A stretch of 64,000 nucleotides of DNA from Tagaea sp. GTDB lineage: Bacteria > Pseudomonadota > Alphaproteobacteria > CACIAM-22H2. Below, in pieces: positions 37,013 to 47,626 of this stretch. Every line of letters starts with the position of its first letter. Positions within the stretch are counted from its first letter, which is position 1. Position numbers and translations under genes: made by a program. The stretch spans positions 1,040,496-1,104,495 of the forward strand of contig OZ257249.1 in assembly GCA_965279565.1 (NCBI GenBank), read 5' to 3'. The notes under the pieces were generated by a model. That model was not told where the DNA came from, made no database searches, and was given only the letters and a program-made list of their open reading frames with translations.

Positions 37013-38011
37013 ATGTTCGCCTATCTCGTCCGCCGACTTCTCGTGATGGTGCCCACGCTGCTGGCGATCAGCGCGATCGTCTTCACGATCATCCAGCTTC
37101 CGCCGGGCGACTACCTGTCGACCCTGATCGCCGAGCTGCAGTCGCAGGGCGAAGCTGCGAATCTGGAGCGCATCGAGTTCCTGCGCCAGCAATACGGGCT
37201 CGACCGCTCGCCGGTCGAACAGTATTTCCACTGGCTGTTCGGGATGCTGCACGGCGATCTCGGCTGGTCGTTCGAGTACAACCTGCCCGTCGCGCACGTG
37301 ATCGGCGACCGGCTGGTGCTGTCGTTCCTCGTCGCGTTCGTGACCGTGATCTTCACCTATGCGGTCGCGTTCCCCATCGGCATCTATTCGGCCACGCACC
37401 AGTATTCGTGGGGCGACTACGGGCTGACGCTGCTCGGCTTCCTCGGCCTCGCCACGCCGTCGTTCCTGCTCGCGCTCGTGATGCTCTATCTCGCGAACAT
37501 CTGGTTCGGCACGTCGATCGGCGGGCTGATGGACCCCGAGTTCGTCGACCAGCCGATGAGCTGGGGCAAGTTCGCGTCGGTGCTCGAGCATCTGTGGATC
37601 CCGGTCATCGTGATCGGCACGTCGGGCACGGCCGCGATGATCCGCCGCCTGCGCGCCAACCTGCTCGACGAGCTGCAGAAGCAGTACGTGACGACCGCGC
37701 GCGCCAAGGGCCTGCCGCCGCGCCGCGCACTGCTCAAGTACCCGCTGCGCATGTCGCTCAACCCCTTCATCTCCGACATCGGCGACCTGCTGCCGCACAT
37801 GATCTCGGGGGCCGCCATCGTGTCGGTCGTCATGTCGCTGCCGACGAACGGGCCGATGCTGCTGTCGGCCCTGCGCAGCCAGGACATGTACCTCGCCGGC
37901 TCGTTCCTGATGATCGAGGCGGTGCTGATCGTCGTCGGCGTGTTCCTGTCGGATCTGGCGCTGGCAGCCCTCGATCCGCGCATCCGGCTGCATGGCGGGG
38001 CGACGAAATGA
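37013..38011 (+). CDS. yejB: ABC transporter permease (YejB/DppB-like).
   Basis: BPD_transp_1 EAA-like motif VTTARAKGLPPRRALLKYPLR, six TM segments. Confidence 0.85.
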   Translation: MFAYLVRRLLVMVPTLLAISAIVFTIIQLPPGDYLSTLIAELQSQGEAANLERIEFLRQQYGLDRSPVEQYFHWLFGMLHGDLGWSFEYNLPVAHVIGDRLVLSFLVAFVTVIFTYAVAFPIGIYSATHQYSWGDYGLTLLGFLGLATPSFLLALVMLYLANIWFGTSIGGLMDPEFVDQPMSWGKFASVLEHLWIPVIVIGTSGTAAMIRRLRANLLDELQKQYVTTARAKGLPPRRALLKYPLRMSLNPFISDIGDLLPHMISGAAIVSVVMSLPTNGPMLLSALRSQDMYLAGSFLMIEAVLIVVGVFLSDLALAALDPRIRLHGGATK

Positions 38012-39180
38012 CCGACGCGCCCGCTTCCGGCGACAGGCTCGCGCACTATGTGCGCCGCGAACCGTTCGACGCCTACGACGGCGAGAAGACGGACCCGTCG
38101 CTCGAAAACTACTACATGGCCACGCAGTGGAAGCTGATGTGGTGGAAGCTCAAGCGCCACAAGCTTGCCCTGTGGTCGGGCGCGTTCCTGCTCGTCATGT
38201 ACCTGTCGATCCTCGTCAGCGAGCTGATCGCCCCCTATTCGCTGGCCACGCGCAACACCGACTTCATCTACGCGCCGCCGCAGGCCGTGCATCTGTGGCA
38301 CGAGGGCCGGTTCGTCGGCCCGTTCGTGTACGGGCTCGACTATTCGCTCGACATGGACACGCTCAAGCGCAACTACGTGCCCAATCCCGACAAGGTGCAG
38401 CCGATCCGCTTCTTCTGCCGCGGCGAGAGCTACGAGTGGATGGGCCTGGTCGAGGGCAGCCTCCATTTCATATGCCCGGCCGAGGACGGCACGCTGTTCC
38501 TGATGGGAACCGACCGGCTCGGGCGCGACATGTTCAGCCGACTCGCCTACGGTACCCGCATTTCGCTGACGATCGGGCTGATCGGCGTGACGATCAAGTT
38601 CGTGCTGGGAATCGTGCTGGGCGGGCTTGCCGGCTATTACGGCGGCTGGGTCGACATGGTGATCCAGCGCGTGATCGAGATCATCCGCTCCTTCCCCGAG
38701 CTGCCTTTGTGGATGGCGCTGTCGGCGTCGCTGCCCGTCTCGTGGAGCCCGCTCTACATCTATTTCGGCATCACGCTGATCCTCGGCCTGATCGGCTGGA
38801 CGGGGCTGGGGCGCGCCGTGCGCTCGAAGCTGCTGAGCCTGCGCGAGGAGGATTTCTGCACGGCGGCGAACCTGATGGGGGCCAAGCCGCGGCGCATCAT
38901 CTTCCGCCATCTCGTGCCCAGCTTCATGAGCCACCTGATCGCATCGGCCACGCTGGCGATCCCGACGATGATCCTTGGCGAAACAGCGCTTTCGTTCCTG
39001 GGTCTCGGCCTGCGCCCGCCGATCACGTCGTGGGGCGTGCTGCTGACCGAGGCGCAGAACATCAACGTCGTGGCGCTCTATCCGTGGCTGCTGCTGCCGG
39101 TCCTCGCGGTGATCGCGACCGTGCTCGCCTTCAATTTCCTCGGCGACGGGCTGCGCGACGCGGCCGATCCCTACAAGTAG
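38008..39180 (+). CDS. yejE: ABC transporter permease (YejE/DppC-like).
   Basis: 390 aa, N-terminal extension plus a permease core (NLMGAKPRRIIFRHLVPSFMSHLI). ATGA overlap with yejB. Confidence 0.85.
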   Translation: MTDAPASGDRLAHYVRREPFDAYDGEKTDPSLENYYMATQWKLMWWKLKRHKLALWSGAFLLVMYLSILVSELIAPYSLATRNTDFIYAPPQAVHLWHEGRFVGPFVYGLDYSLDMDTLKRNYVPNPDKVQPIRFFCRGESYEWMGLVEGSLHFICPAEDGTLFLMGTDRLGRDMFSRLAYGTRISLTIGLIGVTIKFVLGIVLGGLAGYYGGWVDMVIQRVIEIIRSFPELPLWMALSASLPVSWSPLYIYFGITLILGLIGWTGLGRAVRSKLLSLREEDFCTAANLMGAKPRRIIFRHLVPSFMSHLIASATLAIPTMILGETALSFLGLGLRPPITSWGVLLTEAQNINVVALYPWLLLPVLAVIATVLAFNFLGDGLRDAADPYK

Positions 39181-40005
39181 TCAGCGCTTGGCCAGCCACA
39201 GGCTGGCCGCATGCGCAGCCTTCGGCATCGGGATCGCGTCGAGGCCGCGCGAAGCGATCTCGCCCTGCATGTTGCGCGCGATCCATGCCGAACCCCAGAC
39301 GAGATCGAAGCCGCTGCCGGCCAGCAGGGCCGCGACCGCGTTCTGCTCGTTGTAGCCGCGCCACGCCCAGTCGGCCGGATAGGGCTCGGGCAGGAAGATG
39401 TCGTGGAAATGCACGAGGGCGCCGGCCGGAAGTACTGGCAGGATGCGCCCCAGCACGTGGTCCACGTCGGTGCCCGGCATCAGGATGTGCGAGGAATCGA
39501 CGAACAGCACGTCGCCCGCGACCAGCGTGTCGAGCGCGCATTCGGTCTCCTCGAGCCGGTGGCGGTGCCACGTGACGGCGAGCCCCTCGAGCGTGGCGCG
39601 CGGATCGGGATCGATGCAGGTGATCTGCGTGGCGAGCTTTGCGTCGGCGACGGCGCGCGCGAGGAACCGGGTCGAATGGCCCGAGCCGATCTCGACGATG
39701 CGCTTGGGTCGGCGCGCGCGCACCAGCGCATAGGCGAAGGCCGCATCGAGGCCGGGGAACCAGTCCTGTTCCCAGCGCGGGGCCGGCGGCGCCGCGTTCC
39801 CGAAGGCGAGCAGCGTGTCGCGATGTGCCGCGATCGTGTCGAGACCGCCGAGGAACGTCGATCGGGCGGCCTCGAAACGGCGCGCGAGTGCGGGGTAGGT
39901 TTCCGGCGGGCGCACGCCGGCGGCGTGGCGATAGGGAATGAAGAAGCCGCGCGCCGTGCCCAGCAGCGTGGCGGCCTCGAACAGCAGGCGGCGGATCACG
40001 CTCAC
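39181..40005 (-). CDS. Class I SAM-dependent methyltransferase-like protein (TylF/CmcI/Methyltransf_24-like), GTG start overlapping the MBL gene stop.
   Basis: Glycine-rich motif I IVEIGSGHSTRFLA and acidic motif II ITCIDPDP. It ends one nt after the yejE stop on the opposite strand. Confidence 0.5.
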   Translation of the reverse strand: MSVIRRLLFEAATLLGTARGFFIPYRHAAGVRPPETYPALARRFEAARSTFLGGLDTIAAHRDTLLAFGNAAPPAPRWEQDWFPGLDAAFAYALVRARRPKRIVEIGSGHSTRFLARAVADAKLATQITCIDPDPRATLEGLAVTWHRHRLEETECALDTLVAGDVLFVDSSHILMPGTDVDHVLGRILPVLPAGALVHFHDIFLPEPYPADWAWRGYNEQNAVAALLAGSGFDLVWGSAWIARNMQGEIASRGLDAIPMPKAAHAASLWLAKR

Positions 40006-40835
40006 AGCGCGATCGTCTCGCCTTCTTTCGCGACGATCGTGCCGGGCCGCATCGCGGCGGCTTCTGCCGCGATCCTGTCCATGAACGAATCGTCGTGCGA
40101 CGGGTCGTGGTGGAAAATCGCGAGGCGCTTGGCGCCGGCCTTCTCGACGAGGCGGATCCCCTCCTGCCACGTCGAATGCCCCCAGCCGACATGGCCCGGG
40201 AATTCGGCGTCGGTATAGGTGCTGTCGTAGATGACGAGATCGGCGCCCGCGATCAGGCCGAGGATGCTGGCGTCGGGCTTGCCCGGCAGGTGCTCGGTGT
40301 CCGTCACGTAGCAGAGCGACTTGCCCGCGACCTCGACGCGATAGCCGGTCGCGCGGTTGGGATGGTTGAGCCCCGCCGTCTTCACGATCACGCCGGGTGC
40401 CGGGTTCAGCGTCTTGCCGAGCGGGAAGTCGGTGTAGGTGACGTCGGCGCCGAAGATCTCGATCGGGATCGGGAAGAGCGGTGCCTGCATCATTTTCGAC
40501 AGCACGTCCTTCAGCGACATCTCGGGGGCAAGATGGGCGGCCCACAGGCGGAAGCGGTTGCGCTTGTCGTAGAGCGGGCTGAAGAACGGGATGCCCTGGA
40601 TATGGTCGAAATGCGTGTGCGTGAAATACCAGTCGGCATCGACGGGCTGATCGGGGGCCGCGAGTGCTCGGCCCAGCGGCAGCAGGCCGGTGCCCGCGTC
40701 GAAGATCATCAGGCGGTCGGAAGCGCGCACTTCAAGGCAGGGCGTGTTGCCGCCATAGCGCACGGTCGTCGGGCCCGGGCACGGGATCGAGCCGCGCACG
40801 CCCCAGAAAGTCACCGACAGGCGATCGGTCGTCAC
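40002..40835 (-). CDS. MBL-fold metallo-hydrolase.
   Basis: MTTDRLSVTFWGVRGSIPCPG..NTPCLEV..FDAGTGL...HTHFDHIQG...HHDPSHDD is the HxHxDH metal site of the beta-lactamase superfamily. Confidence 0.75.
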   Translation of the reverse strand: MTTDRLSVTFWGVRGSIPCPGPTTVRYGGNTPCLEVRASDRLMIFDAGTGLLPLGRALAAPDQPVDADWYFTHTHFDHIQGIPFFSPLYDKRNRFRLWAAHLAPEMSLKDVLSKMMQAPLFPIPIEIFGADVTYTDFPLGKTLNPAPGVIVKTAGLNHPNRATGYRVEVAGKSLCYVTDTEHLPGKPDASILGLIAGADLVIYDSTYTDAEFPGHVGWGHSTWQEGIRLVEKAGAKRLAIFHHDPSHDDSFMDRIAAEAAAMRPGTIVAKEGETIAL

Positions 40836-41497
40836 CGGGACTTGTCCTTTCCGCGCGGCACCAAGCGATATCCCCCCGGCACCGTCAGCAGCAGACGTGC
40901 GCGGGCCGGATCGCGCTCGATTTTCTGGCGCAGGCGGTAGACATGCGTCTCCAGCGTGCGGGTCGATACCTTCGAATTATAGCCCCAGACGGCGCGGAGC
41001 AAGTCTTCCCGCGCGAGCGGCCGGCCGGCGGCCTTGTGGAGGCTGTCGAGCAGCGTCGTCTCGATCTCGGTCAGGCGGACTTCCGTGCGCTTCGCCGGCT
41101 CGTAGAGGGAGCGGGCCGCGGCGCGGAACTCGAACGCGCCGATCCGGGGATTGCGCCGGCCGCCGGCAAGTTCGCGCAAGGTCGCGGCCAGGGCGGGCAC
41201 GCGGACAGGCTTGGCAAGCACGGCATCGGCCGCGGGACCCGCCCCCGGCCGGCCGGCCACCAGCAGGCAGAGCGGGGCCGCCAGCACGCCGCGCAGCCGC
41301 TTGATCAGCGCGGAAGCCCGCTGGCCCAGCATCGCCCGGTCGACGACCGCCACGTCGAAACCGATCCCGCCGGCCAGCACGAGGGCCGCGTCAGGTGCCG
41401 CCGTCGTCTCGACGCGCAATCCGTGCGCGCGCAGTGCCTCGCCGAGGGCCGGACCCAAGGCCGCATCGGCCAGCAGAAGGACGCGGATACCGCTCAT
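40832..41497 (-). CDS. OmpR/PhoB-family response regulator (orphan; no histidine kinase adjacent).
   Basis: Receiver-like N-terminus (MSGIRVLLLAD...FDVAVVDRAML...LAKPV) and a winged-helix C-terminus (LTEIETTLLDSL..REDLLRAVWGYNSKVSTRTLETHVYRLRQKIE). Confidence 0.75.
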   Translation of the reverse strand: MSGIRVLLLADAALGPALGEALRAHGLRVETTAAPDAALVLAGGIGFDVAVVDRAMLGQRASALIKRLRGVLAAPLCLLVAGRPGAGPAADAVLAKPVRVPALAATLRELAGGRRNPRIGAFEFRAAARSLYEPAKRTEVRLTEIETTLLDSLHKAAGRPLAREDLLRAVWGYNSKVSTRTLETHVYRLRQKIERDPARARLLLTVPGGYRLVPRGKDKSR

Positions 41498-41526
41498 TCG
41501 CAGTCGAGTCTAGCAACTCGCCCGCC

Positions 41527-41566
41527 AAAAACAAAATGGGCCGCCGGGCGGAACCCGGCGGCCCAT
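41527..41566 (-). terminator. Rho-independent terminator of the OMP gene.
   Basis: A 12-bp perfect stem UGGGCCGCCGGG-CGGAA-CCCGGCGGCCCA is followed on the minus strand by UUUUGUUUUU, 20 nt after the stop at 41586. Confidence 0.75.
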
Positions 41567-41585
41567 CGCTGGAAAAACCCAGAAT

Positions 41586-42464
41586 TTAGAACTTCTTGGT
41601 CAGCGACAGCGAGAACTGGCGCTTGGACTGCTCGTAGGTGTCCGACTGCAGGACCGGGTTGGCGTTGTTCGCCACGTTGTCGAAGCCGAGGCTGGAACCC
41701 GCCTTCATGTTCGTGTCCGAGTAGACCAGCGACGCCGTGAAGGCGATGGGCCATTCCATGTCGCGCGCCAAGCCGACGTTCCACGTCGTGTAGTCCGGCG
41801 TGCCCCACGTCGCGTTGCGGTCGATCGTCTGGCGGCCGAGGCGGGCCGAGCCGAGCAGCGAGAACGGCAGCGGCACGTCGAAGCCACCTTCGTAGTACAT
41901 GCCCTTGCCGGCGCCGTAGGAGAAGTCCTTGGCGTAGTAGAGCGAGCCGACGGCCGTCGCGAGGCCGAAATCATAGGCGAACTTGCCGTAGACTTCGTTC
42001 CACTGCGGGTTGCCGTAGGTGTTCGGGCCGCCACCGATATTCTGGTCGGCCGTGTTGCCCGGATAGGTGTAGCTGATGACGCCGACATCGAGCAGCAGCC
42101 CGTCGAGCGGCGTCTTCCAGCGCACGCCGCCGAAGAAGTCGAGCTCGCGGGTCTGGCGGATGCTGACCGATTCGCTGCCGGCCGGCGTGTTGTTCGACGG
42201 GAACCGCGTCGTCGAGGCGAACATGCCGAGATACGGCGTGAAGGCGCCGATCTCGTACGTGTATTCGAGATTTGCCTGGATCGCCGGATCCCTGCGCGAC
42301 TGCGAGAGGCCGCGGAAGATGTAGTTCGACGTGATCGTCACCGACGGGGCGAACGTGCCAACCGACGTTTCGATCTGTGCGTGCGCGGGTGCGCTGACGG
42401 CGGCGATGCCGAAAACAGCGGCAATTGCACCGAAAACCGTCGAAATTCTAGACACTTGAAGCAT
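41586..42464 (-). CDS. Outer-membrane beta-barrel protein (porin-like, TIGR02001/Gcw_chp-type).
   Basis: Signal peptide MLQVSRISTVFGAIAAVFGIAAVSAPAHA, alternating beta-strand pattern rich in Y/G/T/N, C-terminal ...SLSLTKKF with a terminal Phe. Confidence 0.7.
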   Translation of the reverse strand: MLQVSRISTVFGAIAAVFGIAAVSAPAHAQIETSVGTFAPSVTITSNYIFRGLSQSRRDPAIQANLEYTYEIGAFTPYLGMFASTTRFPSNNTPAGSESVSIRQTRELDFFGGVRWKTPLDGLLLDVGVISYTYPGNTADQNIGGGPNTYGNPQWNEVYGKFAYDFGLATAVGSLYYAKDFSYGAGKGMYYEGGFDVPLPFSLLGSARLGRQTIDRNATWGTPDYTTWNVGLARDMEWPIAFTASLVYSDTNMKAGSSLGFDNVANNANPVLQSDTYEQSKRQFSLSLTKKF

Positions 42465-42604
42465 TTTGACCCTCGTTTTGCCAAGTTTGGATTTACCGCA
42501 GCAAGCCGTGTTCCAAGTAACCGGCGAATCGGCACCGAGGGTGATATTTACAACCGCTGTAACATGGATTTTTGATGGTGTTGCCGTACGGTAACATATT
42601 TGCG

Positions 42605-43474
42605 TCAGCGGCTTCCGGCGCGACCCTGAATCATCGCCAGAGCCGCCTTTCCGACCGGATGGCTGAAGTCCGCGACGGTCTCGACGATGGAAAAGTGACT
42701 GTGACCGGCCGCCGGCACGACCGTGACCGCCGCCCCTGCCCTGCGCCACGCATGGACCAGATCGGCCTGCTGGCCGATGAAGGCCCCCAGCTCGTCGCCG
42801 CCGACCGTGACCCACAGTCGCGTGCCGGGTTGCGGACGCAGCGTCAGCGGCGAATAGCGCGCGACTTCGCGCGGCGTCAGGCGCAGCACCGGCTGCTGGT
42901 AGCTGCGCGCGAGCGGCGCCAGATCGTAGACGCCCGAGACCGAGAAGCAGCCGGCCGGGCGGACGGGCAGGTCGGCCATCGTGCACAGCATCGCGGCGAG
43001 ATGGCCGCCGGCCGAATGGCCGCCGACGAAGATGCGTGCCGGATCGCAGCCCAGGCGCGGCGCCTCGCGCCACAGGAACGCGAACGCGTCGCGGATCTGG
43101 CGCACGGTCGCCTCGACGCTCACGTCGGGGCACAGCGCGTAGTTCAGCGTGGCGAAGGCAATGCCGCGCGCAGCGAAGGCCGGGGCGAGCCCGCGCACGT
43201 CGCTCTTGTCGAGCGACTGCCAGTAGCCGCCATGGATGAAGACGAACAGCGGTGCGCGCGCGGCCCCCTTGCGCGGCGGCACCAGAAGATCGAGCGTCTG
43301 CTTGGGTCCGGGACCGTAGGCGAGATCGACATGCCAGCCCGGGCGCGCGAGTGCGGCTTCGCCCGCGCGCTGCCAGCCGGTCACGGTCGCCGCGAAATCC
43401 GGCCAGCGCGCGCGGTTGTTGAACAGCGCATCGAGGGCGGCCTGGTCGTCGGGATAGGCATAGGGTCTGTGCAT
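42605..43474 (-). CDS. Alpha/beta-hydrolase fold-3 esterase/lipase.
   Basis: Oxyanion-hole HGG motif VFIHGGYW and a nucleophile elbow GGHSAGGHLA (GxSxG). Confidence 0.8.
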   Translation of the reverse strand: MHRPYAYPDDQAALDALFNNRARWPDFAATVTGWQRAGEAALARPGWHVDLAYGPGPKQTLDLLVPPRKGAARAPLFVFIHGGYWQSLDKSDVRGLAPAFAARGIAFATLNYALCPDVSVEATVRQIRDAFAFLWREAPRLGCDPARIFVGGHSAGGHLAAMLCTMADLPVRPAGCFSVSGVYDLAPLARSYQQPVLRLTPREVARYSPLTLRPQPGTRLWVTVGGDELGAFIGQQADLVHAWRRAGAAVTVVPAAGHSHFSIVETVADFSHPVGKAALAMIQGRAGSR

Positions 43475-43511
43475 GTTCGCTTCCGCCTTGTTCGGGCCCC
43501 AATTCTGCGGC

Positions 43512-44174
43512 ATGACACCGCCGATGGGCCCACTTCGAAATCCTTCGCGCCGCGCCTTTCTCGGTGCCGCCGCCGCGCTCGTTGTAGCGCAGGCACCGGC
43601 ACGCGCGCAAAGCGCCGGCACGCCCTCCGCGGCCGATGGGGCCGACATCGCGCGCGCCGAGACGTATCTCGATTCGATCCGCACGCTCGAAGCGCGCTTC
43701 CTGCAGATCGCCCCCGACGGCTCGGTCGCCGAGGGCGGCTTCTTCCTGTCGCGGCCGGGCCGGCTGCGGCTCGACTATGACGCGCCCAATCCCAACCTGC
43801 TGGTCGCCGACGGCCGCGCATTCGTCCATATCGACCGGCACCTGAAGACGATCGCGTACCTGCCGATCGACTCCACGCCCGCGGGCCTGCTGGTGCGCGA
43901 GCGGATCCGTCTTTCGGGCGACGTGCGCGTCGTCGGCGTCGAGCGCGGCCCCGGCACGCTGCGCATCGCGATCGTCCAGGCATCCGATCCGCGCGCCGGC
44001 CGGCTCGTGCTGGCGTTCAGCGAGCGGCCCTTCGCGCTGTCGAGCTGGTCGTTCGTCGACGCGCAGGGCCAGATGACTCGGCTGTCGCTGCTCGACACCA
44101 AGGTCGGCCAGCCGATCGACCCGGCGCGCTTCGCCTATGCCGATCCGAGGCCGCCGGAGAGTCGCGGCAACTAG
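43512..44174 (+). CDS. LolA-like periplasmic protein (outer-membrane lipoprotein carrier family), possible Tat signal.
   Basis: N-terminus MTPPMGPLRNPSRRAFLGAAAALVVAQAPARA, then a LolA-like pattern (ARFLQIAPDGS...GRLRLDYDAPNPNLLVADG). The assignment is weak. Confidence 0.45.
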   Translation: MTPPMGPLRNPSRRAFLGAAAALVVAQAPARAQSAGTPSAADGADIARAETYLDSIRTLEARFLQIAPDGSVAEGGFFLSRPGRLRLDYDAPNPNLLVADGRAFVHIDRHLKTIAYLPIDSTPAGLLVRERIRLSGDVRVVGVERGPGTLRIAIVQASDPRAGRLVLAFSERPFALSSWSFVDAQGQMTRLSLLDTKVGQPIDPARFAYADPRPPESRGN

Positions 44175-44289
44175 CGCCGGCGCGGCAGGCTTGGCCCGGC
44201 AGAATCTGCCGGGCGGGCCGATTTTCCGAATTCAACCTGTTGAAATTGCAATGGTTTGCCGTGGTTTGGCCCTTGCAAGGTCTCCGGCG

Positions 44290-45303
44290 ATGAGCGATCC
44301 AGCCAACATGCCGCCTGCCGCGGCCCCGCGTTTCGAGGTCCGTCCAAGTCCGCTCAAGACCTGGAATCCGGACGCGCCGGACGAGTACGTCAATCTCGAC
44401 GCCAAGCCGCTCGGCTTCGGCGACATGCTCGAGGCGCTCAATCCGCTCCAGCATCTTCCCGTGATCGGCTCGATCTATCGCTCGGTGACCGGGGCCACGA
44501 TCGAGCCGGCCGCGCGCGTCGTCGGCGGCCTTCTGTTCGGCGGGCTCGGCGGCGGCATCTCGTCGATCGCGAACGCGCTGCTCGAAGGAATCAACGGCAA
44601 GGATCTCGGCGAGAACCTGATCGCGATGGTTTCGCCCGGCAAGGATGCCCCGCCTCCGCCGCCGGCGGTCGATGGCCTGGCCGTTCCGGCCGGCAATCCC
44701 GACCTCCATTTCGCGTCGTTCGCGGCGAGCGCCCCGGTCGGCGGAACGACCGAACGCAGCGGCCTGCTGACGACGTGGATCGCCGGCGGCGCACCGTCTG
44801 CCCCGTCGGAACCCGTCAAGCCCGAATACGACATGCGGATGGCCGGCGCCCCGGCGCAATCGCCCGGCGCGATCGTCGCGAAGGCGCCGCCACCGCCGAT
44901 GCCGACGCCTGCCGCATCGCCCGCACCTGTCGAACCGCAGCTGGCGGCCGCACCGCCGGCCGTCGCGCCAGGCCCGGTCATCCGGACGGCCGAACCCGAA
45001 GTTCCGCGTGCCCTGTCGCTCGACAGCTATCGCGCGCGCGCGCAGTCGGTGCTTCCGCAGGGGCCGATGGCGCGGGCACCCGCGATCAACGATACGCAGG
45101 GGCTGGCCCAGCGCGGCGAAGCGTTGCGCGCCCTCGCGACGAACCGCAGCCAGGCCCCGTTGCCGGCGGCGCTCCAGGCGCAGCAGGCGATCGATGCGGC
45201 CGGCGAGCCGCAGACTTTCTTCAGCGCGTCGGTGGCACTCGGGCTCGAACGCTATCGGCAGATGCAGATGCAGCGCGACGGTGCTGCACGGCGCGGGATC
45301 TGA
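44290..45303 (+). CDS. Hypothetical Pro/Ala-rich protein. The start is uncertain; 44308 is an alternative.
   Basis: The ORF codon usage looks like coding DNA and the protein has a low-complexity PA-rich centre (PPPPPAVDGLAVPAG; APPPPMPTPAASPAPVEP). I recognised no family. Confidence 0.4.
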   Translation: MSDPANMPPAAAPRFEVRPSPLKTWNPDAPDEYVNLDAKPLGFGDMLEALNPLQHLPVIGSIYRSVTGATIEPAARVVGGLLFGGLGGGISSIANALLEGINGKDLGENLIAMVSPGKDAPPPPPAVDGLAVPAGNPDLHFASFAASAPVGGTTERSGLLTTWIAGGAPSAPSEPVKPEYDMRMAGAPAQSPGAIVAKAPPPPMPTPAASPAPVEPQLAAAPPAVAPGPVIRTAEPEVPRALSLDSYRARAQSVLPQGPMARAPAINDTQGLAQRGEALRALATNRSQAPLPAALQAQQAIDAAGEPQTFFSASVALGLERYRQMQMQRDGAARRGI

Positions 45304-45304
45304 G

Positions 45305-45964
45305 CTAGCCGCGCGTGCCGAAGATGGCGCTGCCCACGCGCACATGCGTGGCGCCGAGCGCGACGGCGGTCTCGAAATCACCGCTCATGCCCATCGACAG
45401 GCCCGCCAGGCCGTTGCGTCGCGCGATCTCGCGCAGCAGCGCGAAATGCGGGGCGGCCGGCTCGTCGGCCGGCGGGATGCACATCAGGCCTTCGATCGGA
45501 AGCCCGTGAATCTCGCGGCATTCGCCGAGGAACGCGTCGACCGATTCGGGCGCGATGCCCGCCTTCTGCGGTTCCGCACCCGTATTGACCTGGACGAAAA
45601 GACGAGGCCGGCGCGTACCGCGCGCGAACTCGGCGGCGAGGGCGGCGGCAAGCTTGGGCCGGTCGAGCGTCTGGATCGCGTCGAAGGTCGCGACCGCCTC
45701 GCGGACCTTGTTGGACTGGAGCGGCCCGATCAGGTGCAGCTCGAACGCGACGCCGGCGGCGCGCAGCGGCGCGTATTTCGCCATCGCTTCCTGCACGCGG
45801 TTCTCGCCGAACACGCGCTGGCCGGCGGCGATCGCCTGCTCGACGTCTTCGGTCGGATGGGTCTTCGCGACGGCGACGAGCGTGACACTGCCCTGCGGAC
45901 GGCCGGCATTGCGGGTCGCATCGTCGATGCGCGTACGGACGGCTTCAAGTGCGGCGGAGATCAT
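45305..45964 (-). CDS. yggS: YggS-family pyridoxal-phosphate homeostasis protein.
   Basis: VAVAKTHPTEDVEQAIAAGQRVFGENRVQEA...LHLIGPLQSNKV is the YggS/PROSC signature with the PLP lysine. Confidence 0.85.
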   Translation of the reverse strand: MISAALEAVRTRIDDATRNAGRPQGSVTLVAVAKTHPTEDVEQAIAAGQRVFGENRVQEAMAKYAPLRAAGVAFELHLIGPLQSNKVREAVATFDAIQTLDRPKLAAALAAEFARGTRRPRLFVQVNTGAEPQKAGIAPESVDAFLGECREIHGLPIEGLMCIPPADEPAAPHFALLREIARRNGLAGLSMGMSGDFETAVALGATHVRVGSAIFGTRG

Positions 45965-45990
45965 GCCCGCCTTGGATTACGTCATATGCC

Positions 45991-46030
45991 CCAAAAGAAA
46001 AAGGGGCAGCTTTCGCTGCCCCTTTCCCCA
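45991..46030 (-). terminator. Rho-independent terminator of the porin gene.
   Basis: GGGGCAGC-GAAA-GCUGCCCC is followed by UUUUUCUUUU on the minus strand, 20 nt after the porin stop at 46050. It also has hairpin potential on the plus strand. Confidence 0.8.
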
Positions 46031-46049
46031 CCGATCGTTTTTGAGACGA

Positions 46050-47306
46050 TCAGAACGCGAGCGTCAGACCCGAGATGACGCCGTTGGCGCGCGACGACTG
46101 CGTGCCCGCCGTGAAGAAGTTGGCGTTCTGCGCGGCCGCCGTGTTGAGCGTGCCTTCCGTGAACTTGGCGGTGAAGACGCCGAGGTTCACGTTCACGCCC
46201 GGAGCGAGCGTGTAGCGGCCCGAAGCGCTGAGAGCTTCGATCTTGTCCTTGCCGCCGTTCTGCTGGGCAACGACACCGTTCGTGACCGTCGAGTGGTCGT
46301 TCTGCGACTGCGTGTAGTTGATCGACACCGCAGCGGCGCCGAACACGTAGCCGGCACCGACTTCCCAGCCGTAGCCGTTGTGGTTGCGGAGGCCGTCGGC
46401 GAGAGCGGCCGCAGCCGTCGTCGTCGTGCCGCCACCGATCTGGCGCCAGTCGCTGGTCTTCTGGTACGAACCGCCGACGTCGAAGCCCATGTACTGGAAG
46501 CCGAGACCGGCGTTCCAAGCCGAGGGGTCCTTCAGCGAGGCCTTGATCGCATCCGAGTTGCCGTAACCCGACGGCTTGTCGAACGTGATGTAGCCAGCGG
46601 CGGCGCGGATGCCGACGCCACCGATCGTGCGGACGAAGTTCAGGTTGGCGCCCACGCCGTTGATGTACTGCGTGTTCTCCGTGGCGAGGCCCTGGCGGTA
46701 CGACATTTCCGGCGTGTAGTTGACGCCGAGCTGGAAGCCCTCGATGCGCGGCGTGTAGTACACGATCTTGTTCGAAATGCTGTCGATATCCATGCCCGTC
46801 GACGGGTGCGAAGCCTGACCCGACTGCGCGCTGACGCCAACGCGGCTGGTCGCGAACGCGCCAGCGTTGTTATCGCCGTTGATCATGCCGCCCGTGAAGG
46901 CTTCGAAGCCGCCCACGGCCGACTGCGAGGCGACGTTTTCGATGCCGCCCAGCTGGACCTGACCGAAGCTGCCTTCGATGAAGTTCCACATACGGCGGGT
47001 GATCGCGTTGCCCGACGAGGTGCCAGCGTTCGGGTTCAGCTGCCATACCGTACCGGCCGACATGCCCGACGGCAGGGCCGCACGGAAGGTCAGGATCAGA
47101 CGGTTGTCCGAGGTCTGGTCGATGCCGCTGCTGCGGATCTGGCCGGCAACGTTGGTCTGGTCCGTGTACTGGACGAACTGGCGGGCGTAGCCGCCGACGG
47201 TCACGGCGAAGTTCGCCGAACCGAACGGCTGGGCCGGCGTCTGGGCAAGGGCCGGAGCCACTGCCGCAGCGACCAGCGCCGTCGTCGCAAGAAGAAGCTT
47301 CTTCAT
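46050..47306 (-). CDS. Alphaproteobacterial general porin.
   Basis: Signal peptide MKKLLLATTALVAAAVAPALA, then 397 aa rich in G/T/N/Y with beta-strand alternation, and a C-terminal ...GLTLAF terminal Phe. Confidence 0.8.
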   Translation of the reverse strand: MKKLLLATTALVAAAVAPALAQTPAQPFGSANFAVTVGGYARQFVQYTDQTNVAGQIRSSGIDQTSDNRLILTFRAALPSGMSAGTVWQLNPNAGTSSGNAITRRMWNFIEGSFGQVQLGGIENVASQSAVGGFEAFTGGMINGDNNAGAFATSRVGVSAQSGQASHPSTGMDIDSISNKIVYYTPRIEGFQLGVNYTPEMSYRQGLATENTQYINGVGANLNFVRTIGGVGIRAAAGYITFDKPSGYGNSDAIKASLKDPSAWNAGLGFQYMGFDVGGSYQKTSDWRQIGGGTTTTAAAALADGLRNHNGYGWEVGAGYVFGAAAVSINYTQSQNDHSTVTNGVVAQQNGGKDKIEALSASGRYTLAPGVNVNLGVFTAKFTEGTLNTAAAQNANFFTAGTQSSRANGVISGLTLAF

Positions 47307-47626
47307 ACTTTTTTCTCCATGTTGAGGCCAGATTACGGCCGCGCGGTCGTGATCCGCCCGCTCCCGAGGTTTTTCGCCCATGGGCCCGTAAACGGTCAAC
47401 CCGAATAAGCCCTTCAGCGGGAATTCGAATTGACCATGTGGCACGAATGCAACATGCCCTCTACGGGGCAGTCGGCAATTCTGCCGGTGCATTTTGCAAA
47501 AATCCTAGGTTTCCAAGGAACTTAGGGGGGCGGGTTGCGGCAACGGCCCGAATGGACTAAATAGGTGGAATTATTGGCATCCGGGCGCGTTCCGGATGCG
47601 AACCCGCCTTTCACAAGGTCCTCGCC

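Follow-up and report, generated by a model that had tools for sequence, protein, structure and literature searches.

A three-gene operon of Tagaea sp. as a candidate cyclase-less form of an alphaproteobacterial cyclic-nucleotide module

In a 64,000-nucleotide stretch of the genome of the alphaproteobacterium Tagaea sp. (hereafter, the window; G+C content 68%), three minus-strand genes lie head to tail at positions 39181-41497. They encode an OmpR-family transcription regulator, a hydrolase with the metallo-β-lactamase (MBL) fold and a methyltransferase. An earlier note on this DNA had described them as an orphan regulator translationally coupled to two enzymes that might degrade or modify a signal, for example in quorum-signal or nucleotide turnover. 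We were interested in which pathway these proteins could serve, and here we analyze the sequences, predicted structures and genomic neighborhoods of all three. The features of the operon are the following:

40832-41497, minus strand: OmpR-family transcription regulator with a degenerate receiver; 221 amino acids, ATG start
40002-40835, minus strand: MBL-fold metallo-hydrolase, probable "atypical class-II" cyclic-nucleotide phosphodiesterase; 277 amino acids, GTG start
39181-40005, minus strand: Methyltransf_24 protein resembling cation-dependent O-methyltransferases; 274 amino acids, GTG start
40832-40835, minus strand: GTGA overlap of the regulator stop codon (TGA) with the MBL start codon (GTG); tcac on the plus strand
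40002-40005, minus strand: GTGA overlap of the MBL stop codon (TGA) with the methyltransferase start codon (GTG); tcac on the plus strand

The list of open reading frames (ORFs) and the sequence bear out the arrangement of three minus-strand genes with successive 4-nt overlaps, and the overlap at 40002-40005 is GTGA as previously given; that at 40832-40835, reported as ATGA, also reads GTGA. The start of the MBL gene is supported by relatives of 277 amino acids aligned at 100% coverage, and that of the methyltransferase gene by a 100%-identical database protein (P0121), likewise of 274 amino acids. A Shine-Dalgarno-like AAGGA can be read about 10 nt upstream of the regulator/MBL overlap. At the other end, the methyltransferase gene does stop next to a convergent yejE-like gene, the two stop codons abutting (TAG at 39178-39180; TGA, minus strand, at 39181-39183). 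Among close relatives, the distance between the MBL and methyltransferase genes is 0-3 nt by tblastn coordinates. The 4-nt overlap between the regulator and MBL genes is found only in the relatives with a degenerate receiver (L001-L003, L009-L011, L013 and L014); at loci where the receiver is canonical, the two genes are 5-321 nt apart and show no 4-nt overlap. Overlaps of 4 nt are frequent in operons, so that such an overlap is, by itself, unremarkable. What exceeds chance is the recurrence of the gene order across orders of Alphaproteobacteria.

The MBL protein contains the Lactamase_B_2 domain (PF12706, E 4.9e-20), and its segment T72-H-T-H-F-D-H78 fits the [T/S]HxHxDH motif, the defining signature of the "atypical class-II" cyclic-nucleotide phosphodiesterases Rv1339 of Mycobacterium tuberculosis, YhfI of Bacillus subtilis and CpdA of Corynebacterium glutamicum (PMC9293780). 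With these enzymes it has in common the domain family, the motif, the fold, a similar size (~250-280 amino acids) and an RNase Z-like ancestry. It differs in that it is only 17-19% identical to YhfI, which makes it a separate subfamily, and in that its gene shares an operon with those of a regulator and a methyltransferase, a setting not reported for any of the three. Ten residues (D46, H73, H75, D77, H78, H158, D179, H220, H242 and H243) are invariant across 30 homologues, and the binuclear metal site is complete (motif 1 Asp, HxHxDH, motif 3 His, motif 4 Asp and motif 5 His). The top Foldseek matches of the AlphaFold model (predicted local distance difference test, pLDDT, 87) are ELAC1, YhfI, RNase Z, PhnP, PqqB and Apyc1, which degrades cyclic nucleoside monophosphates (cNMPs), at template modeling (TM) scores of 0.6-0.72 and 14-19% identity. 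YhfI (6KNS) ranks third among them (E 9.6e-13, TM 0.68/0.77), and a precomputed Pfam match to Anti-Pycsar_Apyc1 is present on many homologues. The subfamily is well conserved in Alphaproteobacteria, with 65-91% identity among the best 120 matches. Relatives that are 40-46% identical are fused, in different combinations, to a receiver (N- or C-terminal), GAF-HisKA-HATPase, PAS, STAS or PilZ domains; from these fusions to signaling domains, the family behaves as a signaling output enzyme. Within the MBL fold, the protein belongs with the phosphodiesterases rather than with the lactonases.

The nucleotide-turnover half of the earlier proposal gains from this assignment and from the cyclase and cNMP-binding neighbors described below; the quorum-signal half does not. 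An AiiA-type N-acyl-homoserine lactonase forming the core of a quorum-quenching cassette, which had been named as a candidate, is hardly credible in our estimate. It would account for the HxHxDH motif, which is superfamily-wide, but there is no lactonase among the best 50 Foldseek matches or among the Pfam and NCBIfam matches, and no luxI or luxR genes occur in the neighborhoods of the syntenic loci. Two further candidates fare no better. The MBL protein reaches 65.3 bits against a cut-off of 252 with one RNase Z model (NF000801) and 61.9 against 293 with another (TIGR02651), both matches being confined to its C-terminal 100 amino acids, so it does not qualify as a housekeeping RNase Z/ElaC paralogue. 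With the PhnP model TIGR03307, it scores 22.3 bits against 272, and no phn genes are found in the neighborhood in the window or at the syntenic loci. RNase Z, PhnP and lactonase were accordingly rejected as identities on score cut-offs and fold ranking. The NCBIfam model for cyclic-nucleotide-degrading phosphodiesterases gives 35 bits against a cut-off of 400, and the protein falls short of every curated equivalog model. An anti-phage role, as an Apyc1-like host enzyme or part of a defense island, was also set aside: PADLOC returned no match for the regulator or the MBL protein and a marginal one for the methyltransferase.

One segment of the MBL protein stands out in another respect. The N-terminal loop of residues 18-28 (window 40752-40784, minus strand) is nearly invariant (P20, G21, Y27, G28) and is the sole low-confidence segment of the model (pLDDT <50); it is possibly a conserved flexible lid or substrate-binding loop.

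A profile scan with the methyltransferase, limited to one genome per species, returned at least 591 carriers, and the locus counts given here refer to the best 80. These are all Alphaproteobacteria and include Rhodospirillales sensu lato, Tagaea, Sneathiella, Thalassospira, Geminicoccaceae, Dongiaceae, Azospirillum halopraeferens, Microvirga and Enterovirga. The genes adjoining the methyltransferase gene fall into four arrangements:

regulator, MBL, methyltransferase: 38 of 80 loci
MBL, methyltransferase: 20 of 80 loci
cNMP-binding protein, MBL, cyclase, methyltransferase: 3 of 80 loci
methyltransferase without an MBL gene: 19 of 80 loci

Hence an MBL gene lies upstream of the methyltransferase gene in 61 of the 80. 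A second scan was anchored on the MBL gene and covered metagenome contigs on which the encoded protein is 57-86% identical to that of the window. Room for a neighbor on either side was available at 51 loci: 16 have both the regulator and the methyltransferase gene as neighbors, 11 have the regulator only, 10 the methyltransferase only and 14 neither. Co-occurrence of the trio outside this genome, on which the earlier reading hinged, is therefore seen in both scans (38/80 and 16/51). The trio is real and recurrent, yet every member is dispensable. Even L001 and L002, close relatives of the window, carry the regulator and MBL genes without the methyltransferase, which is an optional partner: it accompanies the MBL gene at about half of the MBL-anchored loci and also occurs where regulator and MBL genes are missing.

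The earlier note did not recognize that the module normally has a fourth member, a gene of the adenylate-cyclase type that follows the methyltransferase gene. Searches with orthologous cyclase queries found a class III cyclase gene next to the methyltransferase gene in 31 of the 80 loci. In 28 it follows directly (for example L055:8926-10290, plus strand; also L018, L028-L031, L046, L047, L062, L085 and others) and in 3 it lies between the MBL and methyltransferase genes. Of the 50 MBL-anchored metagenome loci that could be evaluated, 30 likewise have a cyclase gene after MBL or after MBL and methyltransferase, and in Sneathiella the cyclase gene follows the methyltransferase gene although the regulator and MBL genes are absent. 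The encoded cyclases are membrane-anchored proteins of ~450 amino acids, 53-64% identical across orders, whose Guanylate_cyc domain is confirmed by Pfam. Their closest solved relative is Synechocystis Cya2. At the position of the substrate-specifying Glu of Cya2 they have Lys, and at the second specificity position Thr, the pair being present in 26 of 27. Among class III cyclases, this Lys/Thr pair is typical of adenylate cyclases, and by it the neighbors are predicted to be of the adenylate-cyclase type.

Genes for cNMP-binding proteins form the second recurrent association. The first hint of cyclic nucleotides came from a metagenome-assembled genome (MAG) of Rhizobiales (L005/L006), in which the order is cNMP-binding protein, MBL, class III cyclase, DUF3095, methyltransferase. 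A cNMP-binding protein is encoded directly upstream of the MBL gene, or divergently from it, in L005, L020, L021, L074, L091, L092 and about nine metagenome loci, and can thereby stand where other loci have the regulator. The details vary with the taxon: in Niveispirillum, the MBL gene is divergent from one whose product contains two cNMP-binding domains, and a GGDEF gene is adjacent; in Mesorhizobium, genes for an ABC exporter, a cNMP-binding protein and the MBL protein follow one another, with DUF3095 and a cyclase a few genes off; and in Sinorhizobium, the MBL gene is beside DUF3095, with a cyclase near. Relatives of the MBL protein and of DUF3095 occupy nearly the same rhizobial replicons (246 and 249 plasmid records). 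A neighbor-joining tree of 152 MBL sequences does not separate the loci by context (regulator, cNMP-binding or cyclase) but interleaves them, which indicates one family whose partners have been swapped.

Some of these rhizobial regions deserve mention in their own right. The chromid cluster of Mesorhizobium pWSM1497 (L092) and Sinorhizobium medicae pMl3 (L093) includes, besides the ABC exporter, cNMP-binding protein and MBL genes, those for GT4 glycosyltransferases, a polysaccharide deacetylase, DUF3095, a nucleotide-sugar dehydrogenase, the cyclase and a polysaccharide lyase, and looks like a cNMP-controlled surface-polysaccharide locus. On Rhizobium leguminosarum pR132502 (L089:10390-12828), at a distance of 3.5 kb from an MBL homologue, there is an adenylate/guanylate cyclase gene that overlaps an FkbM-family methyltransferase gene at the start of the latter, a second and unrelated pairing of cyclase and methyltransferase. 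The L005 cluster also raised the idea that GcyB and GcyC of the Rhodospirillum centenum cyclic GMP system (gcyA/B/C, cgrA) correspond to DUF3095 and the methyltransferase. This link was not established: in the accessible literature, these genes are only called "hypothetical", the best 120 matches to the A. halopraeferens methyltransferase include none attributable to R. centenum or Azospirillum brasilense (the Azospirillaceae named among them are A. halopraeferens, Azospirillum sp. ST 5-10 and one Azospirillum MAG), and the cyclases at our loci carry the adenylate-type Lys/Thr pair.

With moderate confidence, we interpret the three genes of the window as one operon that is a derived, cyclase-less form of a conserved alphaproteobacterial cyclic-nucleotide module, the fuller version of which would run regulator, MBL phosphodiesterase, methyltransferase, class III adenylate-cyclase-type gene. 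By its motif, fold, fusions and gene neighborhood, the MBL protein most likely hydrolyzes 3',5'-cyclic AMP (cAMP), possibly another cNMP, to the 5'-nucleotide. Such hydrolysis would terminate the signal, and the methyltransferase would have as its substrate a small, conserved compound belonging to that pathway. The clade with the degenerate receiver is also the clade without the cyclase, and the window's clade has lost this gene.

Several observations weigh against this interpretation. There is no cyclase or cNMP-binding gene in the window, nor at the locus in close relatives, and so the partner that would produce the substrate is unseen here. The regulator, MBL, methyltransferase and cyclase genes occur in all pairwise and single combinations, so that none of the four is an obligate partner of another. 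The methyltransferase gene stays beside yejE where the regulator and MBL genes are gone, so that inheritance of gene order may account for some of the linkage. The identity of the MBL protein to characterized phosphodiesterases is just 14-19%, and its nearest solved proteins by sequence are RNase Z and ELAC1. Finally, D53 and K105 of the regulator's receiver are retained, so that the protein may still be phosphorylated.

Carried to its extreme, the argument from gene order would have the three genes adjacent solely through inheritance and short overlaps, with no common function. Each of them does occur alone, the methyltransferase in 19 of the 80 loci (15 after adjacent cyclases are counted); the regulator and MBL genes lack the methyltransferase in L001 and L002; and the MBL gene has neither neighbor in 14 of 51. 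We nevertheless regard such an absence of shared function as very improbable. The MBL and methyltransferase genes lie on the same strand, mostly less than 100 nt apart, in 61 of 80 species whose methyltransferases are only ~50% identical, and the pair moves jointly into cNMP-binding and cyclase contexts. In this genome, moreover, the 4-nt overlaps imply co-transcription.

A different substrate for the MBL protein is a more serious alternative, which we consider rather unlikely. Under this explanation, the enzyme would be a phosphodiesterase or nuclease for 2',3'-cyclic nucleotides or a cyclic dinucleotide, or else a paralogue of the RNase Z kind that acts on RNA 3' ends, and its association with cyclases would be a looser, regulatory one. 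RNase Z and ElaC are indeed its nearest solved relatives: ELAC1 and RNase Z are the best Protein Data Bank matches by sequence (E 2e-5 to 6e-10), the fold agrees at TM scores up to 0.72, the GHST motif of the MBL protein aligns with that of RNase Z, and partial matches to NCBIfam RNase Z models reach E 4.5e-18. Enzymes of the YhfI type have broad substrate ranges, and one relative of the MBL protein is fused to PilZ, a domain that binds cyclic di-GMP. Against this stand the scores far below the cut-offs for RNase Z (65 versus 252 bits) and PhnP (22 versus 272), the lack of phn genes nearby and the fusions of the family to signaling domains. The neighborhoods, too, are those of signaling by cyclic mononucleotides, with class III cyclases and cNMP-binding domains and not GGDEF, EAL or RNA-processing genes, the exception being one GGDEF gene in L091.

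The regulator has the winged-helix C-terminal domain of its family (Trans_reg_C, PF00486, E 1.5e-19, residues 138-212) and aligns over its full length with MtrA and RegX3; its N-terminal part gives no Pfam match to Response_reg at E<=0.01. Alignment with PhoB, whose residue numbers are used here, of 38 regulators encoded upstream of MBL genes shows what has changed. In the receiver of the window protein, D53 and K105 are kept, E9 is lost, and T83 and Y102 are both replaced by Val. The eight relatives L001-L003, L009-L011, L013 and L014 show the same pattern: together with the window protein, they have lost one acidic residue, have Val, Ile or Gly in place of Thr83 and Val, Leu or Ala in place of Tyr102, and have an altered beta3-alpha3 loop, with Asp53 and Lys105 staying in place. 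The receiver is canonical (DD...D...T...Y...K) in the 29 loci of other taxa, or 28 if the partly decayed L048 is excluded. Compared with these canonical orthologues, the window regulator is 56% identical in the DNA-binding domain (27% to PhoB) and just 25% in the receiver (19% to PhoB). As far as can be judged from sequence, the decay of the receiver is clade-specific and recent, because canonical orthologues persist at the same locus.

That the regulator is an orphan with no histidine kinase nearby had been noted before and holds; the degenerate state of its receiver, confined to one clade and canonical elsewhere, had been missed. A motif scan, of limited sensitivity, detected no H-box or N-box in any frame of the 64-kb window, its sole match being a single G2-like motif in a 200-amino-acid ORF. 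HisKA and HATPase_c are absent from the precomputed Pfam lists of five syntenic loci. The same limited scan found a kinase-like ORF in 3 of 88 related loci and adjoining the regulator in 0 of 88, and the regulator is therefore an orphan family-wide.

We propose that this protein is the DNA-binding regulator of the module, which would control the operon and perhaps further targets. In most taxa, it has the form of a canonical response regulator, for which phosphorylation by a kinase encoded elsewhere is expected. In the window's clade, it probably acts without phosphorylation, because it has lost the Thr and Tyr of the switch as well as an acidic residue that binds Mg. Translational coupling would tie the amount of regulator to that of enzyme and so fix their ratio. 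Phosphorylation-independent regulators of the OmpR family are exemplified by HP1043 of Helicobacter pylori, ChxR of Chlamydia and GlnR and JadR1 of Streptomyces. The window regulator resembles them in its full-length OmpR architecture, in a receiver without conserved phosphorylation or switch residues and in the absence of a partner kinase gene; it differs from them in keeping the phospho-acceptor Asp and the Lys, and there is no evidence of common descent.

Links between phosphodiesterases and such regulators have precedents. In Dictyostelium, GbpA and GbpB, two MBL-type phosphodiesterases of class IIb, contain cNMP-binding domains, and RegA combines a receiver with a phosphodiesterase (PMC11988041). 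The logic is the same, in that a phosphodiesterase is tied to cNMP-binding or two-component control. The Dictyostelium proteins, however, are multidomain, whereas coupling here is by gene adjacency and, in relatives, by fusion of receiver and MBL domains. Since the regulator in the window is a separate DNA-binding protein, control would be transcriptional and not allosteric. A further parallel involves Rv0805 of M. tuberculosis, a phosphodiesterase of a different class (metallophosphoesterase), and PhoP, a member of a canonical two-component pair whose gene is unlinked to that of Rv0805. PhoP is reported to control Rv0805 (PMC11090507); to that extent, an OmpR-family regulator is tied to control of the cellular cAMP level there as it would be here.

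The third protein contains a Methyltransf_24 domain (PF13578, E 2.4e-13). The SAM (S-adenosylmethionine)-binding motif I (E105, G107, G109) and the acidic residue after strand 2 (D132) are intact, and the invariant positions comprise E105, G107, S108 and G109 (within EIGSGHSTRF), D132-P133, D170-S-S-H173, H199, H201-D202 and W215-R-G-Y-N-E-Q221. An extra N-terminal region of ~90 amino acids also contains several invariant residues, and the protein as a whole is strongly conserved (mean column identity 64%). The AlphaFold model (pLDDT 86) has Foldseek matches to PaMTH1, an Rv0187-type O-methyltransferase, TomG, CCoAOMT, CmcI and MeT1 at TM scores of ~0.4-0.46; a search of the Protein Data Bank by sequence returned no relative. 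The label "TylF/CmcI-like" that had been attached to the protein is loose, as neither family (PF05711, PF04989) matches at E<=0.01; CmcI is a remote structural neighbor (rank 15, TM 0.39) within the group of cation-dependent O-methyltransferases.

With COMT/CCoAOMT, PaMTH1, TomG, CmcI and MeT1, the methyltransferase shares a Rossmann-type fold, motif I (ExGxGxG) and the acidic residue ending strand 2. D170 of DSSH and H201-D202 of HxHD lie at the ends of strands equivalent to those that bear the COMT metal ligands D141 and D169-N170, a placement judged by eye. Differences from the cation-dependent enzymes are the low TM score (just 0.4-0.46) and identity (13-19%), the N-terminal extension, a His-rich putative metal site, the invariant WRGYNEQ and a conservation stronger than that of natural-product O-methyltransferases. 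The model suggests a cation-dependent O-methyltransferase-like enzyme with a His/Asp-rich putative metal site. Its substrate would probably be a small invariant molecule tied to the nucleotide pathway.

The boldest version of this idea is that the methyltransferase acts on the nucleotide signal itself, placing an O-methyl group on the ribose of cAMP, of the compound from which it is made or of the one to which it is degraded. The cluster of regulator, phosphodiesterase, methyltransferase and cyclase would then make, modify and destroy a methylated cyclic nucleotide, a compound undescribed as a bacterial messenger. We regard both parts of this proposal as long shots. Cation-dependent O-methyltransferases are specialized for metal-chelated vicinal hydroxyls, and the link to the cyclase persists without the phosphodiesterase and regulator at the Sneathiella loci; the enzyme type and this link allow action on the nucleotide ribose and do not demonstrate it.

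Three variant settings of methyltransferase genes were encountered in the surveys. In Microvirga and Enterovirga (L065:6976-7989, plus strand; also L061 and L086), the methyltransferase gene is preceded by one for a membrane protein with LPG_synthase_TM (the MprF-like flippase region), and in L065 the two overlap by 4 nt. These loci have no MBL, regulator or yejE gene nearby, which hints at a possible role of the methyltransferase outside nucleotide signaling. A metagenomic clade (L164:4819-5460, plus strand; also L107, L133, L145 and L156) has a shorter methyltransferase of ~214 amino acids, still Methyltransf_24, with a cNMP-binding gene upstream; its gene runs straight into that of the cyclase and overlaps the MBL stop codon by 7-9 nt in L124, L145 and L156. 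At Geminicoccaceae-type loci (L087:6512-7006, plus strand; also L034, L043 and L057), a gene for a small Methyltransf_17 protein (E 1e-52) just upstream of the MBL gene replaces the regulator, so that the MBL gene is flanked by two different methyltransferase genes. The neighbors of methyltransferase relatives on Bacillus and Acinetobacter plasmids were uninformative.

The conserved flanks of the operon invite one more explanation, namely that the trio serves a cell-envelope or peptide-stress response, in which the regulator would control the Gcw_chp-family outer-membrane protein encoded upstream, the yejABEF peptide importer or both, and a molecule of the envelope or derived from peptides would be the target of modification by the two enzymes. 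The five syntenic loci share the order Gcw_chp, regulator, MBL, (methyltransferase), yejEBAF, and the methyltransferase gene converges on yejE, within 2.6 kb, in 39 of 80 loci, including some without regulator and MBL genes. The membrane-protein coupling in Microvirga and Enterovirga and the position of the rhizobial MBL gene amid glycosyltransferase and polysaccharide deacetylase genes would also fit. We judge an envelope function improbable all the same. The convergent orientation means that no transcript is shared with yejE, and in 31 loci (15 with MBL and methyltransferase, 16 with the regulator as well) there was room downstream for yejE but none within 2.6 kb. Neither enzyme has a predicted export signal, as read from their sequences, and the more specific association is that with cyclases and cNMP-binding proteins, which is seen repeatedly in genomic settings unrelated to one another.

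All three proteins are members of known superfamilies, and cNMP phosphodiesterases of the MBL type have been described before. In the searchable literature, we found no description of the four-gene cluster or of the cyclase-less version with a degenerate receiver, and nothing on DUF3095 or on an MBL phosphodiesterase together with a response regulator in Rhodospirillales. The module bears on a gap in alphaproteobacterial cAMP signaling, in which cyclases are many and signal removal is little known: the MBL protein is a widespread candidate phosphodiesterase, with thousands of relatives on record, and relatives of the methyltransferase are encoded in at least 591 species genomes. The presence of a methyltransferase in the cluster is explained by no current model of cNMP signaling. 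If it acts on a nucleotide, this would be a new kind of second-messenger chemistry; if not, the gain is an upgraded annotation for several families now called "MBL fold metallo-hydrolase" or "class I SAM-dependent methyltransferase". The lineage of the window, in turn, with its cyclase lost and its receiver decayed beside a conserved DNA-binding domain, offers a natural experiment that can show how the output of a two-component system may become a phosphorylation-independent regulator.

The surroundings of the operon contribute the remaining features:

41525-41567, minus strand: intrinsic terminator (hairpin and T-tract) of the upstream Gcw_chp outer-membrane protein gene
41507-41512, minus strand: TAGACT, candidate -10 element 9 nt before the regulator ATG, suggested by conservation
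38008-39180, plus strand: yejE-like ABC permease gene that converges on the methyltransferase gene, outside the operon (ORF list)
41586-42464, minus strand: Gcw_chp-family outer-membrane protein gene, upstream (ORF list)

The terminator reads on the minus strand from 41567 to 41535 as a 15-bp stem with 11 G-C pairs and a loop of 3, followed by TTGTTTTT, and is placed 3' of the Gcw_chp gene. The hairpin is kept in eight related loci, with base changes on both arms. A strong terminator isolating the operon from the upstream gene had been described previously; the strong hairpin is real, and the isolation has to be qualified, since only ~28 nt separate the T-tract from the regulator ATG and any regulator promoter must therefore overlap the terminator tail. 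A scan of 38900-42700 for consensus sigma-70 promoters found none. At the site of TAGACT, the eight relatives have TAGACT, TAGGAT or TAGGCT within variable flanking sequence, which makes this a possible -10 box, with the T-tract region as a possible weak -35 element (TTGTTT, 16-nt spacer). Read in this way, the mRNA would be leaderless or nearly so, and the T-tract of the terminator may double as the -35 element.

The nearest relatives of the window are two MAGs, one of Rhodospirillales (L010, 92-96% identity) and one of an uncultured "Azospirillum" (L009). PF09694 (Gcw_chp) occurs at the same position in L001-L004. Farther upstream, window positions 42605-47504 encode an alpha/beta hydrolase, LolA, a 388-amino-acid ORF of no assigned family, a YggS-like protein (Ala_racemase_N) and a Porin_4 protein. 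This neighborhood is syntenic with L001-L003, and the block from the porin gene to yejABEF is therefore an old and stable arrangement in the lineage.

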